Source: Lophium mytilinum
Lineage: Eukaryota
NCBI GenBank assembly: GCA_010093605.1
Contig: MU004183.1
Coordinates: 124,001-188,000, forward strand
Reading direction: 5' to 3'
Length of the DNA stretch: 64,000 nt
Shown here: positions 27,958-38,348 of the stretch, piece by piece
How the letters are laid out: each line of letters begins with the position of its first letter
How positions within the stretch are numbered: the first letter of the stretch is position 1
Notes under the pieces: model-generated
Databases searched by the model: none
Told to the model about the DNA's origin: nothing
Seen by the model: only the letters and a program-made list of their open reading frames with translations
Program-made: the position numbers and the translations under genes

Positions 27958-28749
27958 TGATGTTGCAGAGTCGTTTAGGCGGAGAGTATAGTGACTCGTG
28001 TTGGATGGAATCGTTTGTGATGTTCACGTAGAGAAGAGCACTGAAGCTCTACGAGATGATGAAGATGTCCCACACTGCTTAGTTAGCGGCGTTTCTCGCA
28101 CGAGCCGGTATTGGCGATCGCTTCGGTTGGAGGCACCGTCCTCGATGCAACCGTTACTTTTAGCTGCGGGAGATTCGAAGTATTTAGGAGTGGCTAACGT
28201 ACATGATTTATATAGAATAGGAGGTAATATCGACAAGTGCTCAAATTTCGAGCTGTTTGAAGTCAACATACATACAGACCTATTGCTCTCCTCGACATAA
28301 AGGGGTTCTCGCTACGCAGGGACGGGCATCAGTCTGGGAGGTCAAGTCACACTTCAACGACGATGCTCAGAGTCCAAAGAATCCATTATCCATGCTATGC
28401 CTCTGCTCCGGTCTTCGAACACCAACCCAGTTCCATCCCGAATTTTCTATCATGCACCAGTCAAGACACCTACACTACGATTACAGCCCATCATCCCAAA
28501 GGAAGCCGATGAACACGCACACACAAAGGGATAACCGCGCCCACCTGGGAAGCGGTTCCAGATTACAACGGTTTAGTTTATCCTTACTAAAACAACAATG
28601 CTGCCAGCCAGCAACACAACACACCAGAAACCCTTGCCTTTACGCCGATGCTGAGATGCATGTGTAGTCCATCATCCGGGTGATCCAAGGAGACGATAAG
28701 AAGAGAAAAAGGGAAAAAAACGAGACTTTTTGGTGTTTCAGGGAGTGGT

Positions 28750-30440
28750 TTAGCCGGAGTATAATGCTTCGACGAGATAGATGACGCCGAATACGAGGAA
28801 AGCGATTGCGCCGCCAAGGGTGACTGTTTACTAAGATTAGCAATAATCCTCCAATACATAATTGAGCAGGATATGAATTCGACTTACCGACTCTCATTGA
28901 GACTTTCCCCGCAATCGCACGTCCTCCTAGAACAGCCACTCCCGTACACACCGCATGCCCGCTGATTGCGCCACCTGTAACCCACCAATAGTCCTGTCCT
29001 GCAGCCATGGCAATAGTCGCGATCTGGCTGCGGTCGCCCCATTCGCCAAGGAAAGTCATTACGAACGTCTGCACCCACGCCGGGGAGAGAAGGAGAGAAA
29101 AGAGATTGGTTAAGCCGCTGGTGACTGCTGAGAAAGAAGAAGTATTCGGGGACCGTGAGCGAGAAGGAGAAGTGGACGGCGAACGAGCTGGAGCTGGGAG
29201 CCGCGACCCCGAACGCGAGCGTCGCGCGCGGCCGGCTTCGAGGACGTAGGGAGATATAGAGGAGCGGCGGCGGGAGTTTCGGCGTGCGGTTTGCTCCTTT
29301 TCTTCGAGCTCCATCTCAACCTCCTTCATTTCCTCGCCGACACCCTCTTCAGGTGACATGGCAAGACCCTCACGGAGCATCTTGGCCCCGAAAACGAGGA
29401 AGAGGATCGCGGCGGCGAAATTTGTGAAACGTTTGGGGAGCAGTGTCGGGACGGCGTGGCCGAGGACGGCGGAGAGGACAGTCATAGTGATGAGGGCAGC
29501 AAATGCGGCGGAGAAGACAAGGGCGCGCGGGTGACGCATTGCCATCAGGGCGGCGATAAGGAAGGTCTTGTCACCGACTTCGGAGAAGAGAATCATAGTA
29601 AGGGAGAGCAAGAACGAGTGTAATGGCTGGATGACGCCGCTGGGGTCTTCATCTTCGAATGAGGGGCCGTCAGTGGAGGGTTTCTTTGTGGGGATGTCGA
29701 GGGGGTCGTCATTGGAGGTGGGAGGGGCGGGATGAGGGATGTCATGGGGAGAGTCGGGGAGGTCGGTGGGTTTCTATGTAGATAGTATGGTTAGCTGGGT
29801 GTTGAGTAGTGAGAGGATTTGGCCGGCATACCTCAAATCCAACAGCGCCTGGTTTCTTTGTAGACGTCGGATCCGATGAAAGCTTGTCCTTGATCTTCTT
29901 CTTATCGTCGTGCGGCTGTGGAGGAGCCTCCTTTGGTGGATCAGGCTTCTTCTCGGCCTTCTCGCCCGTCCGCTCCTCCTCCTCTTTCCTCTCCCTCGTC
30001 TTTGCTGACACGCCATCTTTTGTGCCATCTGTGCCGTCCTTGGGTATAGCGCGGTTTTTATCATTCATCACGCCATCTTCCTCCTTTAGCTGGGCTACCT
30101 CTTCCTTTGTCAAGTCTTGTGTCTTCTTCTTGGGGTCTGGCAGCTTCGTGCCCACGGGCAAGAGGTCCTCGACCTCAGCGGGAGGCTTCTTCTGCTTTCC
30201 ATCCACGAAAGGGCCTGCGTGGGGCTTGCCGTCAAGCCCGTCCACTGGTGCATCTTCTGTGCCAATGTCTGGTTTTCCGGGTGATCCAGGCGCAATTGTC
30301 GGTATCGGGGCATACTCCTGCACCTTTGCGTCTCGGGCGACTTGCTTGCTATCAGAGTCCTTGGGAAGTGCTGACGCGAAGACCGGTAGTGTGGGGAGGA
30401 GAAGGAGAAGTAGAGGAGCTGGACGTCTTCGTAGTCTCAT
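28750..30440 (-). CDS. GDT1: GDT1/UPF0016 (TMEM165-family) Ca2+/Mn2+:H+ antiporter
   Basis: Signal peptide plus the twin family motifs SEVGDKTF and GEWGDRSQ. The last exon VTLGGAIAFLVFGVIYLVEALYSG follows an intron. Confidence 0.93.
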
Positions 30441-31175
30441 GGTGATGTAGGCGTATGTGAAAGGGGCGGTGGGTAGGTCAGAGACGACGTAAGCTCACGA
30501 GACCGGAGGGGGAGCGTGTCGCGGGAGGACTGAGAATTAAAGGAACTAGAAGAGCTTTCTTATGGTGAGAGAAGCCGGCAAAGAAGGTCGAATTAGAGTT
30601 ATGGAAAAGGAGTGTTGCGTTGAAGTCGTGGGTGATGCAGACGAGATCCCCAGAGGATTTTCAGATGTGAGGCGCAGGGGCGGCAGGGTACGAGGCTAGC
30701 GGAGCACCACACGGGCACGACGCGCAAGGGGCAACGAGGCGGAAAAGGAGGCTTCTGAATGTATTGTTTAGGTTGCTGGGCGGTGTGAAATGGAGAGAAG
30801 GGTGCAGGTTTGTGGTAATTGGGATTACTGCTGTTCAATTATTGCTGGTTGGTGATAGAGCTCTTTCGTTGAATCCACCTGCACACGTCGCCTCCCAGTT
30901 ATGCCAGGATTCAACTCGCCAAGAGATCCGGGGATTCTAGCCTGCTCTGCCTGGCCGGTTTGGCCGGTTTGGTGTGCCCGTTGATGCTTGCAGACACCTT
31001 TACCAGTGTTTTAGAGTTACACCAAAGGATTTTGGAGACTTCAAAAGTCACTATAGCATTATACTATCATGGGACTGACATACACCTTCTTTCAGATGAA
31101 ATAGGAAGCAGATTCGCCCAATTCTTCATGATGTATACTCGATAGGGCACTCCAAGCCGCATTCAGATCGTTTCG

Positions 31176-31184
31176 GTCACGTGA
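31176..31184 (+). promoter_or_regulatory. GTCACGTGA E-box ~180 bp upstream of the telobox-Myb gene
   Basis: Exact 9-mer, in the divergent promoter shared with GDT1. Confidence 0.4.
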
Positions 31185-31364
31185 AGTCGCTGTCCGCTCG
31201 GACTTTCCGTCCCATCTTATCCCGCGCACAAGCCCACAACAACAAACACTCCCAGCTTCATAACAACGCCCACCACCCCGTCGCATCAAGACTGCCTCTC
31301 TTACCACCAGGCGCATGCTTCCCCGTCGCCTACCCTCTTCGAGTCATCCTGAATAACCCTCCCA

Positions 31365-34278
31365 ATGGCCGACCGCAGGGCCGTCCGGGCATCAAGCCGG
31401 CGCAATACACCCACTCCACAACCTCCTTCGAAAGCGAATACCCCCACCGCTGCGCGCACCTCGACTCGCAATGCGACCAGAGCCACGAGAAGCCAGAGCC
31501 ACGAAGTCGAAACCCCCGCTGTTGCTCCAGCGCCCGCGACAAAGAATACTCGTAGAGGTGCCCGTCAAGCCAGCACCGAGAGTGTAGGGAGCACGGACAG
31601 TCGCGCTAGCCGGACGATTCGAGGTCTTAAAAAGCAACAGAAGAAAGTTCGGGCTCCGCCTGATAGAGGTGAGTGATCATTGCCTTCTCTCAGAGGTCAA
31701 AAACCGAGGGCTTCCTGAACCCATTCACTCTTTGTTCTCAGCGCCTCTCCGAAACTTGCACCTAGGGTTAGGGTTAGGGTTAGGGTTAGGGTTGTTCCAC
31801 TCCCTGCCATCAAAGCGTTCTAGTTGCGCATGTCTAAATATCTCTGCGCACCTCATTTCTACACCTCATTTCTAGAATACCTATTCAGACAACAGCCATC
31901 TCACTATTTGCTTGTATCAACCACACGCAGGAGCTGACAGACGCCGTGAACACAGATCTCACAACAGTCGAAGAAGACGAAGACGCGGAGCATGTTGTGG
32001 ATGTGATACCTGAACAAGAGGCACCCGGGACACCTCCGTTGCAAGATCAGATAAGCCAGCCACTTCCTCATCGGTCCCCCGGGGGATTCTCCAACATCTC
32101 AGGCACTACGGCGTACTCGTCTGCTTCAACAGCCGAGGCACAAGATCTAGAAGCAGGCATGATGCTGGCAGACCTGGAAGATCTCTACAACAACGCCGAG
32201 AGTTTCCTCAATGTGATGGCTCCCAAGGATGCTCGGACTCGCGATTTTGAGAAAGTTCTAAAGGACATGCGGATCCCTGGCTCGACGACAAGCAAAAGTT
32301 TCCTCAAGAGGAGCAAAGGGTTTAATGATTTCGTTGAAGCATTCAAAGGTGAAGACCGACATTATATTCTTCCACGAGCCGTGTCAAAGACCCTTTTCGG
32401 CTCACAGCAAGACTTGAACACCATACCTGGACGTCCGGATGCAGTTCTATACAAGGCCAATCTGGCGGTGCTCGCAAGGCGGCTTCTCACCGACCGTGGA
32501 ATTGAGGCAATCTGGAAAGACGTCCAGCAACTAGATCTCAGCTTCCCTGAACTCTTTCTATCTCGATTTAGTGACGAACTAAACGAGCGTGGCGACACGA
32601 GTACCCTTCTCGAGCAGACTTTCAAAGTGGCTTTGGAGATCCGTACTCAAGTAGCCATACTCGACCTTGCCCAAGAAGTGGATATGAGCGAGAGCTTTGA
32701 CCCGGACCGGGTACTCCAGACCGTATTCTTGAAAGGCTCGCTTTCAGACCAAGAGGATCAGGATTATCCCCCGTTTGTTCGTGGATGGAACGTGGGCGCA
32801 TTGGGTGCTGGCCTAGCCGAAATACCACAACCCTTCAAAGACGCCGTAGTCAGACGGATGGAGGAAATCCGGGCGTTTTTTGACCCAAACAGTCCTGCTG
32901 TTGATATCGATCCCCTTCGAGCCAAATATTCTTGGGACTCATTTTGTGTGCGTGTGCTTCAGTGGGTGCGTGACCGCAACCAGGAGATTGAAGCCTCCAT
33001 AGCTCATATCGGGATCAAGGGCCTGAAGAATCAGGTCGAAAGAAGTGTCAAGTCGGTCAATCCTGGTGCTGCTCCAGCTGAGATCACCGAAACTCCACGC
33101 GGGCCACGGATATCGAACATCTCAGCCCAGTCGAAAAAGTCGAGGAGGTCTTCCAGGGTTCATTTTACCAATCCTGACGCGTATGATTTTCTTCTCCGTG
33201 GGCCACAGGCCGAGAAACAGGCAAAGTCTAGGGAAACTGCTCTGAATCAGAAGACCGCGCCTACGGCACTAGGAGTAGATCAAGAGATCATCGAGGACGA
33301 TTGGCAAGCGGCTCCCATCGACGACGAGGAGCCGGAAGACCCACAAGAAGAGTCATCTACATCCCGCTTTCCACCTTCCACAAACGATCGGGTGGCGCGT
33401 CTTGCCCATGAAGAGCAGATACAGAAGGAGAACCAAAAGCAACGCTTCATCGACCCCCAGGCCAACCCAGAGCGTGTTACATTCGATGACGATATTGAGG
33501 CTACCCAGCCTACTCCGCGACCAAGCAGGAAGAGCAAAGGCAAGGCTCCCATCCGTGCCTCTACGACTTCTCCTGGACGTCCCTCTACCGTCGCTCCCAG
33601 GGCTCAAAAGAGAACCTACGCACAAACCGTCCAAGAGGATTCCGACGACGACGACGACGTTTTCCAACAAGACACCCGCCAACCTGACGTCTCCAAACGT
33701 CGCAAGGCCGGCCCCACAGCCAGTCGCCTCCGCTTCGAAGAGCCCATTGAAGTCCCTCCGAGCCATCAGCCCCAGCGGCGCTTCCCCGAAAACCGCAGCC
33801 GCAGCCGCAGCGTCCCAGTCCGCCCTGCCTCTGAAGACAGCGACTTCGAAAACGAAAACGAGGACGCTGCTCCGGTGTCTTCCAACTACCGACAAGTCCA
33901 GCAACAGGTGAAGCGCATGGCGCCTGCCTTCCCAGCCCGCCAGCAGCAGCGGCGCGCGCGAAACCCATGGACAGCGCGCGCGGAGGACCAGCTAGTGCAG
34001 TATATCGAGGAGTACGGGTGTCAGTGGGCTTATATCAGGAGGCTGGATGAGGCGGATACGCAGATGTTTCTGGATCGGACGGATGTAGATTTGAAGGATA
34101 AGGCAAGAAACATGAAGATTAATTATCTGAGGTCAGTGTACATCTACAGTCTTACTGGAGTGTGAGATGGGGATGCTAATTAGGAAACAGGTCCGGCACG
34201 GGTCTCCCGGAGAATTTCGACGGGATCACGATCTCGCAGTCTCTGGCGCGGCGGTATGGTCTAGTTGAGGATGCTTGA
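31365..34278 (+). CDS. Telomere-repeat-binding factor-like protein (TRF/Taz1/Tbf1-type C-terminal telobox Myb domain); exons 31365-31668, 31956-34131, 34191-34278
   Basis: C-terminal RNPWTARAEDQLVQYIEEYGCQWAYI...RTDVDLKDKARNMK..L / RSGTGLPENF, with LKDKARN as the telobox helix-3 signature. A helical N-terminal region may be a TRFH-like domain. Both introns are phase-consistent GT-AG with branch sites. Confidence 0.8.
31762..31793 (+). repeat. Interstitial telomeric tract CTAGGG(TTAGGG)4TT inside intron 1 of the telobox gene
   Basis: Read directly: cctagggttagggttagggttagggttagggttg. Confidence 0.97.
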
Positions 34279-34708
34279 AGGGCGACTGGGACTTGTCTGG
34301 GTTTTTAGGCGTTATTATCGAGCTGATGTTGGGTGGCGTGGATGGTGGGCTGGTACTTGGGTGGGGAATTGTGATTTATTGATACCCTGTGGGCTCCTAT
34401 AAGTGGATTTCGGCGTTCCGACTTTTCTATATACTCAGTTCGTTGTATGAGACCTCGTTCAACTACTTCAGACGTTTGGCTTCTGCATCTTCTGCTTTAA
34501 TTAGTCGACTTTGTCTCGCTTGTAGGCTACAAGTTCTCTGCGTTTTCCCCCTTCTCCATATCTCTCTGCTAGTCATGTCGTTTGATCACCTGCTTTCCTC
34601 CCCGTTCTCCACTAATGCGCATCGCGACGAATGACTCACCGGGCATCTACGTGCAAACAAACAACTACAGCCTGTACACTGCGTTGTCACCCTTTTTGTT
34701 AAATTCGT

Positions 34709-36104: not shown

Positions 36105-38348
36105 CTACGTATCCAACTCCCTCTCAACATCCTCCACAGACTCCGCGTCTACGTCTTCATTTACCAACGCAGCCTTGGCAATCCCCTCCAACTCCACCGC
36201 CAGCGCCACCCCCGCCGCGCGCCCACGCTCCACATCCACAAACAGCATAATCGGGAACGGCACACCCACCAGAACCGCGAGGAACCAGAACGCCTATACC
36301 AAGTAAATAGTTAGCCAAAGTGCTCTACCCAAAGGGGAAAGAATAATAAACAAGGTCACATACCGGCCTAATACTCCCCCACCGATCCGTAATCGCCCCG
36401 ACAACCGCCGGCCCAAACACACTACTCCCCTTATCCGTAATGGCATAGAGCGCATAAAACGCCGCCTCAAACCCCGGCGGGATCAACTCCCCAAACAAAC
36501 TCCTGCAATAACTCGACAAGCCCCCGAGCACAAACCCGTAGACCGCGCCGAGAGGATACATCTCCCACGGCTGCTGCAGCCCGCCAACCCCCCACCGCTG
36601 GATCGCGGGGATGTACCCGAGCAAGCCGTAGATGGGGATGGTCTCGAAGAGGAGGATGCAGGCGAGGATGGTCTGGGCGGGCCGCAGACGCATCCAGATG
36701 GAGAGGCGGGACCAGGAGAAGGCGCCAACAACGCCCGAGGCGGTGGCGATGACGTTGATGAGGGCGAGCGCGGCGGGGCGCATTTCGAGCGAGGTTTTGG
36801 CGAAGAGGACGGCGGTGCCGGAGGTTGTGGCGATGGCGTCGGAGAGGAGGAACCAGGCGGCGAGGAAGAGGAGGACGTCTTTGAGGCGGCGCGCGTGCGC
36901 GCTGGTGCGGCCGAGAGCTTTCCAGGAGTAGGTGAAGTAGGCGAGGGCGGCGCGGGCGCGGGTGGTGGAGGAGGGGAGGGCGAGGGGGGGTCCGGGGCGG
37001 GGGCGCAGCCAGAGGGCGGTGGGGATCGTGAAGATGAGCCACCAGAAGCCGATTACGAAGAGCACGAGGCGGAGGGAGAAGGTGGTGGAGGAGGTGGAGA
37101 TGATGAGGACGATGGAGAGGGTTTGCACGATTAGGGCGGCGATGTAGCCGATGCCGATTCCGTAGGATGAGATCTTGGTTGAAAGGGCGAGCTCGATGGA
37201 CGCAGTTGCTGGAGAACGCGGGTTGGGGACTGTGAGATCGGCAGTGGACCTGTTGTGGTGGAGCAGGGCAGTGGTGGAATCAATAACACCGTCGAGTATG
37301 CTCTCCTCCCCAGCCAGCTCATTTGAGTAGCGGGCTTCCTCTCGTAATGAAGACGAGCTGGAACCTTCAATGGGGTTCTCATCGGTATAGGACTGGTCCG
37401 CTGAGTCTTCTGGGTAGTACTGCACAGTCGGGTGGTGTCTGACAAGCAGAGGTAGGAAAGAATTTAGGAGAACAAACGAAGCACCGAAACAAGTATTCGC
37501 AATAATCGCCAGCAATGCACCCAGGAGATATACGCTCGGAACAATAGGAAGGAAAAGCATGGTAGCAATAGCGCCGATAAATGCAAAGGTTAGCAGGAAG
37601 GTCTTCCGGAAACGGCCATGATCTGCCGCGCCGGACATGGAGATTATTAACAGAGCTTGGATTAGGACACTGATGGAGAAAGTGTACATGGCGAAACTGG
37701 CGGTATTGACCTCAACACCCAGGATGTGGACTATACATTGTCCTGGCTCTTGTCGGGGGGAGCGGCCTAGTATGGAGGAGGTGATGTTGAGACCTGGGGG
37801 ATCCACGTGGAAGCTGGCGCTGCATGGGGTTGTTTTGTCGGAAAGAAGCACGCCGCGTTCCCGGGCGAGTTGTTCGAGGGTTATGGGTATGAAGGAGCCT
37901 GTTCCATCAGCTTGCGATCCCAGTGATAGTATATTCGGAGTTTGACGGTATGTCCGGGACGCGATGGGATGGGTCGAAAGACGCGTAGAAGCGACCAGGA
38001 CGAGATGAGAGCTTACCGACTCCGCAGACTACGAAGACCTGATTCTGTTAGCTGCTTGCATGAGTTTCTGCGATAGGAATCTCATACCTCGGCGGCCCAG
38101 CCATACATGTAGAAGCCAGCCAGCTCCTTGGTGCTTGTCAGACGTGTGTCCTCCCCGTCGTAGGGCTCGCGGGTGCGCGACTGGGGACCCATGGTGCTGT
38201 AAGAGTCGCGGTCGGAGCCAGACTGCTCGTCGTCGGCTTCGTTGGAGTGGGAGACGGAGGGAACTGAAGCCTTTGAGGCGCGGGAGTGATCCCTGAAGAC
38301 CTCACGACGCTGCAGGTAGCGTGGCGGGGACGGGGCCCTCGGCGCCAT
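36105..38348 (-). CDS. ATG22: Autophagy-related protein 22 (vacuolar amino-acid efflux MFS transporter)
   Basis: [43 protein letters not shown], [11 protein letters not shown] and [34 protein letters not shown]. Three introns. Confidence 0.95.

Follow-up and report, generated by a model that had tools for sequence, protein, structure and literature searches.

Introduction

The closest described system to the one reported here is Saccharomyces cerevisiae Tbf1, which was placed on its own promoter by chromatin immunoprecipitation on arrays (ChIP-chip), a result read as 'probable auto-regulation' (Lavoie 2010, PMC2834713); according to the same source, Tbf1 recognises clustered TTAGGG motifs with no fixed spacing or orientation. 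We analysed a 64,000-nucleotide stretch of Lophium mytilinum DNA (contig MU004183.1 of assembly GCA_010093605.1, positions 124,001 to 188,000 of the forward strand; hereafter the window, from whose first letter positions are counted), in which a gene for a Tbf1-type protein carries the telomeric tract CTAGGG(TTAGGG)4TT inside its first intron. The Lophium protein belongs to the same family as yeast Tbf1 and has the same combination of a TRFH-type domain and a telobox Myb domain, and both genes have clustered TTAGGG in their own 5′ noncoding DNA, which in yeast was read as auto-regulation; in addition, the yeast feature was gained and lost between species (PMC2834713), matching the patchy distribution we describe below. 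However, the yeast motifs are scattered and single, whereas the Lophium tract is a perfect tandem array of about five repeats; in the window and in two orthologous loci (L031 and L045) the site is past the start codon, within intron 1; and while occupancy in yeast comes from ChIP, own-site binding is here inferred from sequence. According to a review (PMC7857110) the host also keeps TTAGGG telomeres, so that the same protein may sit at its chromosome ends, which is not the case in budding yeast.

Several other systems offer partial parallels. Schizosaccharomyces pombe Tbf1 (6k5s, 6k5u and 8ynu) provides the closest solved fold for the helical domain of the Lophium protein and the second-closest Myb domain by sequence, but the helical domains share only 13–15% sequence identity, and S. 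pombe Tbf1 is described as having no compelling telomere function (PMC7744550). Plant telo-boxes are likewise short interstitial telomere motifs that serve as cis-elements read by telomere-repeat-binding Myb proteins (TRB), but TRB is a different protein family and telo-boxes mark large gene sets (PMC10167121); the abstract of that work contains no statement on self-regulation of the plant TRB genes. Vertebrate short interstitial telomeric sequences (ITS) bound by shelterin (PMC6410037) are, like the Lophium tract, exact telomeric hexamer arrays at internal, intronic positions, but the usual view of them is as scars of repair that do not recur at particular genes, whereas the tracts considered here recur at one orthologous gene. 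Pezizomycotina mostly retain TTAGGG telomeres, and the telomere unit of Aspergillus oryzae is TTAGGGTCAACA (PMC7857110).

Control of telomere length depends on the number of duplex-repeat-binding protein molecules, and how cells set this number is little known; a telomere array in the gene for such a protein would, if it works as we propose, be a simple and directly testable feedback device, and the tract recurs in several fungal lineages that still have canonical TTAGGG telomeres. Should it reflect merely ordinary Tbf1-type self-regulation, the budding-yeast ChIP observation would be extended to filamentous ascomycetes, and, if our reading is true, regulatory sites would be seen to have moved between promoter and first intron. 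Control of a Tbf1-type factor through sites in its own gene has a probable precedent in yeast, and the novelty here is the tandem telomere array, which in some lineages is inside the first intron. We found no literature report of telomere repeats within TRF/Tbf1 genes of filamentous fungi, be it in an intron or in the promoter, most subscription journals being outside the coverage of our search.

A telomeric tract in the first intron

The tract occupies positions 31762–31793 on the plus strand, its G-rich strand being the sense strand of the host gene, and it starts 94 nt past the donor and ends 162 nt short of the acceptor of intron 1. An earlier note on this DNA had called it the only telomeric tract in 64 kb, and a scan of the window with TTAGGGTTAGGG, allowing up to one mismatch, bears this out: all four matches, which overlap, are inside the tract, with none elsewhere, while 100 dinucleotide-preserving shuffles gave a mean of 0.16 matches and never reached the observed four.

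Intron 1 (31669–31955, plus strand) is 287 nt long, has GTGAGT...ACAG ends and is in phase 1. The sequence, a joint among the contigs of sequencing run X3 and the NCBI protein model agree on the structure that the earlier note had read from the letters, with GTGAGT at 31669, GCTGAC at 31933 and CAG at 31955. The GCTGAC (31933–31938, plus strand), as read from the sequence, is a candidate branch site, whose branch A (31937) is 18 nt upstream of the 3′ splice site, and fits the fungal CTRAY branch consensus. Run X3 is taken as RNA by an automatic guess ('RNA?'), none of the listed records that contain the stretch being marked as RNA. A 336-nt contig of this run spans 31333–31668 and stops exactly at the donor border of exon 1, a contig of 2558 nt runs from the exon 2 border across a joint that leaves out the 59-nt intron 2, and a 58-nt contig of depth 231 joins 31666 to 31954, skipping 287 nt with GT..AG ends, though its arms of just 28 and 30 nt are below the 31-nt rule applied to joints. 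A further contig, of depth 8.1, retains all of intron 1 (31639–31983) and matches the window letter for letter, also within the tract; its depth is about 3% of that of the exons (8.1 vs 231–294). Intron 1 is therefore real and removed in most molecules, and the host gene is transcribed and spliced, as seen in the RNA-like run X3. Runs X4 and X5, both air metagenomes, held only exon pieces at 90–99% likeness and were uninformative on the intron. The unusual length of the intron had been set by the earlier note against introns of mostly about 45–80 nt; this contrast holds against intron 2 (59 nt), but the other comparison made, with the tract-free first introns of orthologous loci, covers a wider range (47–181 nt).

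Recurrence of the tract at orthologous loci

A profile scan of metagenome contigs yielded 73 related loci (561,556 bp), which fall into 44 clusters at ≥88% DNA identity. The analysis of 5′ noncoding DNA, defined as 600 bp upstream plus intron 1, used the 24 non-redundant clusters (229 kb) in which the start codon, and intron 1 where present, could be placed; the other 20 clusters, which held later parts of the gene only or in which the start could not be fixed, were left out of it and kept in the raw scans. Among all 73 loci, perfect runs of at least two TTAGGG were found only in L031, L045 and L039/L040 (one cluster). In L031 (intron 1, L031:534–863) there are three repeats, with a fourth 6 nt further on, and in L045 (intron 1, L045:916–1191) there are two, in both cases with the G-strand as sense strand, while L039/L040 has three repeats starting 292 bp upstream of the ATG with the C-strand on sense. 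Allowing one mismatch added only the tract TCCTAACCCTAACCCCAA of L037, about 140 bp upstream of the ATG and with the C-rich strand on sense, and all tracts of at least two repeats found at this tolerance lie either in intron 1 of this gene or in the 300 bp that precede its ATG. With two mismatches allowed, matches were scattered over all loci as by chance, e.g., CTAGGGTCAGGG 152 bp upstream in L010. Another of these matches is in the promoter of L028, which has a degenerate, G-rich, telomere-like array with four TTAGGG.

With the window excluded, two-repeat tracts occur in 4 of the 24 loci within the 5′ noncoding DNA (15,857 bp in all) and are absent from the remaining 213,541 bp, where a uniform model would expect 0.07 and 0.94, respectively (Poisson P 9e-7, or 0.002 when L031/L045 and L037/L039 are each counted once). 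With the window included, 7 of 25 loci have at least two TTAGGG hexamers in this noncoding DNA, as against 36 of 3405 control windows of 750 bp (1.06%), and the 8-mer TTAGGGTT occurs there 13 times, in seven of the 25 loci, with no occurrence in 197,485 bp outside. Cognate motifs are thus present in the gene's own regulatory DNA above background.

The tracts also coincide with long introns. Intron 1 occurs in 21 of the 25 loci, at a position common to 20 of the 24 orthologous loci, and the three introns with a tract are the three longest of the 21 (276, 287 and 330 nt vs 47–181 nt), which has a chance of 1 in 1330, or of 1 in 190 if L031 and L045 are taken as one lineage. As the tract adds at most 32 nt, these long introns must hold additional sequence. 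The four loci that lack intron 1 (L008, L010, L016 and L048) read on in frame from exon 1 to exon 2; the intron was accordingly either lost more than once or gained late.

Lineages and shared flanks

A quick maximum-likelihood tree of 41 rows (30 loci, the window and 10 named proteins) grouped the window with Glonium and Lepidopterella in a 16-row group with a Shimodaira–Hasegawa-like approximate likelihood ratio test (SH-aLRT) value of 98, and within this group signs of the repeat are confined to L002, with two dispersed hexamers, and L010, with its weak match. The sister loci L031 and L045 (SH-aLRT 98) both retain the intron tract, and L028 is sister to Penicillium proteins (SH-aLRT 99). The promoter tracts of L037 (L037:2589–2625) and L039 (L039:4451–4480) share the 3′ flank CTAACGCCC, which suggests that one ancestral promoter tract has been kept in both, and the introns of L031 and L045 have TGTCAACCGA in common, 30–50 nt past the donor. 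Given these shared flanks, the tracts within each pair were probably inherited and kept across a large divergence. Apart from TGTCAACCGA in L031/L045 and CTAACGCCC in L037/L039, no second motif beside the tracts was found to be shared across lineages. Overall, the tract recurs in Pezizomycotina orthologues but is not universal, and there are three to five separate tract lineages, namely Lophium, L031/L045, L039 and L037 (possibly one), and L028. The window has GGTCAAAAACCGA at a place similar to that of TGTCAACCGA in L031 and L045; this motif may be a second element or may mark mere shared descent.

The host gene encodes a Tbf1-type protein

The telobox Myb domain, delimited by structure-sequence and profile comparison, is encoded at 33947–34131 (plus strand), has the recognition helix VDLKDKARNMK and continues into exon 3. 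In a search of solved structures with the single sequence the best match was to the S. cerevisiae Tbf1 Myb domain (8x6d, E 5.8e-5), and with a profile of ten family members the matches became strong for S. cerevisiae Tbf1 (8x6d, 5.3e-19) and S. pombe Tbf1/trf1 (6k5u, 1.2e-13), with weaker ones to human TRF1 (6e-6) and TRF2 (3.5e-4). The profile alignment to Tbf1 extends through the C-terminal extension encoded by exon 3, and the LKDKARN of the recognition helix is identical to that of the solved S. cerevisiae and S. pombe Tbf1 Myb domains; across the ten family members conservation is at least 90% at K815, D816, K817 and A818 and complete at R809. Searches with the Pfam models were less informative, the Myb model scoring 19.8 bits on the host protein, below its cut-off of 24.4, and the TRF model giving no match.

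Residues 140–475 of the 855-residue product, encoded at 32069–33076 (plus strand), form a predicted all-helical, TRFH-like domain, for which the AlphaFold2 model has a mean pLDDT of 86.6 and a pTM of 0.86. In a Foldseek search with this model, the only matches with E-values of 0.001 or less were five Tbf1 helical-domain entries, i.e., the four chains A–D of 6k5s from S. pombe (5.7e-5 to 2.5e-4, TM by target 0.65–0.69) and the N-terminal domain of S. cerevisiae Tbf1 (8x6e, 3.4e-4), with Taz1 (4zmi) and TRF1 (8w8g) lower down, at ranks 36 and 38 (E 0.67). A two-copy complex prediction of this domain scored 0.00 with controls not folded, and so gave no evidence either way. The layout of plant TRB proteins, an N-terminal Myb followed by a histone H1/H5-like domain, is not that of the host protein, in which a TRFH-like domain is followed by a Myb at the C-terminus. 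By profile comparison and modelled structure, then, the host protein is a TRF/TBF1-family member of the Tbf1 type, in keeping with the C-terminal telobox Myb that had been recognised in the earlier note, and its identical recognition helix suggests that it would bind TTAGGG.

The N-terminal segment encoded by exon 1 is very basic and rich in S, T, R and P, has a motif (T)RSQS(R/H)(E/D) that is conserved in orthologues of many lineages, and may resemble the basic N-terminus of TRF2. A paralogue search of the same species with the Myb region retained two of 59 candidates, the protein itself and its Mytilinidion orthologue, the search being too insensitive for a domain of 96 amino acids to exclude others. 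The annotated orthologue of Mytilinidion resinicola, the closest named relative, has 492 amino acids and is without the whole TRFH-like part, jumping from ...GGFSNIS to the region after Lophium residue 480; this gap reflects a faulty gene model or else a true loss of the segment.

A proposed feedback element and its alternatives

From the observed tract, its intron, the protein family and the recurrence at orthologues, we propose that the tract is a telomere-repeat cis-regulatory element in transcribed 5′ noncoding DNA to which a telobox protein would bind, thereby giving feedback; we consider this proposal about as likely to be right as wrong. A telomere-repeat-binding Myb protein would bind the double-stranded tract, the likeliest binder being the product of the gene itself. 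The earlier note had suggested such binding of the protein to its own intron, and our results support that suggestion in part, as regards the protein family, the intron and the recurrence of the tract. TRF/Tbf1 proteins work as dimers in which each Myb contacts one repeat, so that two or more tandem repeats would form a high-affinity site for a dimeric protein of this family, and its occupancy would feed back on the output of the gene. We favour negative feedback, which would hold the free protein pool steady, since telomere-binding proteins are dosage-sensitive and a downstream site, here about 430 bp past the first transcribed base seen (31333), would be better placed to hinder than to recruit.

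A number of observations weigh against this proposal. The earlier note had looked to conservation in orthologues, and here the outcome is divided, in that the repeats recur in intron 1 or the promoter in several lineages and nowhere else in 229 kb, while the TTAGGG hexamer is absent from the 5′ noncoding DNA of 16 of 25 loci. Within the window's own clade L001, L004, L007, L008, L009, L016, L029 and L033 have no hexamer in this DNA, and these empty clade-mates imply that such a circuit is dispensable or that its sites turn over. In the tree L031 and L045 join L039 (with an Aureobasidium protein) and L037 (SH-aLRT 93, with a long-branch warning), and independent origins may number only three or four. 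In the study that reported the yeast self-binding, Candida albicans Tbf1 was not seen at its own promoter (PMC2834713). At S. cerevisiae Tbf1 sites, moreover, no Pol II pausing or roadblock was detectable (Roy 2016, PMC5052057), so that a simple elongation block at the intron is unsupported in the one organism tested and a Pol II roadblock is weakened as the mechanism. Finally, other TTAGGG binders exist in Pezizomycotina, where Tay1-type double-Myb proteins include the Tay1 homologues of Aspergillus (PMC7744550).

The patchiness of the tract raises the question of whether it is a neutral short ITS, e.g., a scar of telomerase break repair or a product of slippage, that lies in a telobox gene by coincidence. 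The loci without a hexamer and the lack of a tandem tract in the sampled clade-mates of the window would fit this, as would the variation in placement (intron or promoter) and orientation. However, such an origin predicts no orthologous recurrence beyond chance, and recurrence at one gene and nowhere else in the 229 kb is what we found, even by the most conservative of the counts given above; in addition, the L037 and L039 flanks are homologous and the tract is kept in both L031 and L045. As to whether such tracts are common genome-wide, which the earlier note had named, together with their absence from orthologous introns, as refuting its idea, interstitial telomere sequences are described as rare in Neurospora crassa, a model Pezizomycotina genome, and as having under four tandem repeats (Jamieson 2018, PMC5752202), which also speaks against a neutral origin; our own background consists of the 64-kb window and the 561,556 bp of loci together with this statement. 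We therefore think a neutral origin improbable.

The tract could also be a functional telomere-repeat element that is read by another factor, such as a Tay1/Teb1-type double-Myb or other telobox protein, in which case it would reflect cross-regulation or membership of a wider telobox regulon. The Aspergillus Tay1 homologues would be candidates, the S. pombe homologue works chiefly as a regulator of transcription (PMC7744550), and in both A. fumigatus and N. crassa the ribosomal protein genes have an excess of TBF1-type motifs in their upstream DNA (PMC4138321), indicating that a telobox regulon exists in the subphylum; sequence by itself, furthermore, cannot name the Myb protein that is bound. 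On the other hand, a regulon would be expected to hit some neighbouring genes, and neither a two-repeat tract nor TTAGGGTT was found at other genes in the 197–213 kb of flanks, while the one tested precedent, S. cerevisiae Tbf1, is a case of self-binding (PMC2834713). Binding by a different protein is in our view unlikely, though the likeliest of the alternatives considered here.

A chromatin role may be considered as well, with the tract acting as a nucleosome-free or insulator element or as a seed of H3K27 methylation. Inserted telomere repeats show that internal TTAGGG arrays can have a cis effect on chromatin in a Pezizomycotina genome, as in N. crassa (TTAGGG)8 induced some H3K27me2/3 and (TTAGGG)17 a 225-kb domain (PMC5752202), and yeast Tbf1 functions at subtelomeres and is a mark of snoRNA promoters (PMC7952879). 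But the N. crassa effect begins at eight repeats, is repressive over many genes and is not associated with the native short tracts of that genome, which according to the same source lack the H3K27 methylation mark (PMC5752202), and the Lophium tract, with about five repeats, is below the eight that gave 'some' methylation. The exon contigs, at depths of 231–294 in the RNA-like run X3, also speak against this reading, and nucleation of chromatin would leave the choice of this gene unexplained; we judge it very improbable.

A last alternative acts at the level of RNA, where (UUAGGG)4 in the pre-mRNA, a G-quadruplex former similar to telomeric repeat-containing RNA (TERRA), would slow the splicing of intron 1 or recruit protein to the RNA, with a stop in the retained intron lowering output. 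In TRF2, the basic N-terminus mediates binding to TERRA. All three intron-borne tracts have their G-rich strand on sense, there is the retained-intron contig at about 3% of exon depth, and when intron 1 is retained an in-frame stop follows two codons beyond the end of exon 1. Yet the shared orientation has a chance of 1 in 4 (1 in 2 if L031 and L045 are counted as one), the depth-8 contig is possibly pre-mRNA or contaminating DNA, and the promoter tracts of L039 and L037, which precede the ATG, have the C-rich strand as sense, so that an RNA G-quadruplex is not the common mechanism. This makes an RNA-level element a decidedly remote prospect.

An extension of the proposed feedback would make the intronic mini-telomere a sensor of the free pool of the main duplex telomere-repeat-binding protein, coupling its supply to total telomere length, a coupling that the earlier note had suggested, with the same logic kept or reinvented in several Pezizomycotina lineages. 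Long telomeres would soak up the protein, leaving the intronic tract vacant and the gene fully expressed; as telomeres shorten, free protein would occupy the tract and alter transcription or splicing. We offer this extension as speculation that is rather unlikely to hold in full.

Gene structure, neighbouring genes and other features

All exons of the host gene are on the plus strand. Exon 1 (31365–31668; splice model, X3 contig and protein record) comprises 101 codons plus one base and encodes the basic, S/T/R-rich N-terminus; exon 2 (31956–34131) has an in-frame translation of 724 amino acids and an X3 contig over 31954–34129; intron 2 (34132–34190; 59 nt, GTCAGT...ACAG) is backed by an X3 joint that skips 59 nt at depth 265.8 with 212 nt on its shorter side; and exon 3 (34191–34278; splice model and protein record) ends in a TGA stop and encodes a C-terminal extension (SGTGLPENF...) common to Tbf1 proteins. 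Spliced together, 31365–31668, 31956–34131 and 34191–34278 give a product of 855 amino acids containing VDLKDKARN, which by eye is the same as the NCBI 'hypothetical protein BU16DRAFT_613777 [Lophium mytilinum]', and the exon 2 translation matches that record with 100% identity over 100% coverage.

Intron 1 also contains a perfect 13-nt tandem duplication, two copies of CACCTCATTTCTA at 31849–31874, 56 nt 3′ of the telomeric tract, no counterpart of which was seen in the introns of L031 or L045. A transposon or other repeat origin of the long intron was considered and rejected, a repeat search of 31000–32100 having given the tract, this duplication and short chance pairs only. An Rfam search of 30800–34600 with E-values up to 1 had no matches, and thus revealed no known snoRNA or other RNA family in intron 1. 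The idea of a telomerase RNA template was dropped by reasoning, since such templates contain about 1.5 repeats. Across the window TTAGGG/CCCTAA occurs 9 times (4 of them in the tract) vs 23.2 ± 4.9 in dinucleotide shuffles; a specific depletion outside the tract was rejected as the cause, since under an order-4 Markov model 41 occurrences were observed in 24 loci where 39.4 were expected, and the scarcity in the window therefore follows from shorter words and carries no specific signal.

Upstream of the Tbf1-type gene, and divergent from it, is a gene for a GDT1-family cation/proton antiporter (28640–30440, minus strand; Pfam PF01169, E 1.1e-41). By tblastn, a GDT1-family gene is upstream of the Tbf1-type gene in 36 of the 73 loci (loci L001–L066), as in the window, which supports the positional orthology of the loci, and the gene pair is conserved over much of Pezizomycotina. 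In L028 the GDT1-family gene is on the plus strand. The downstream neighbour (36325–37851, minus strand) is an ordinary gene for an Atg22-like vacuolar effluxer (PF11700, E 5.9e-160).

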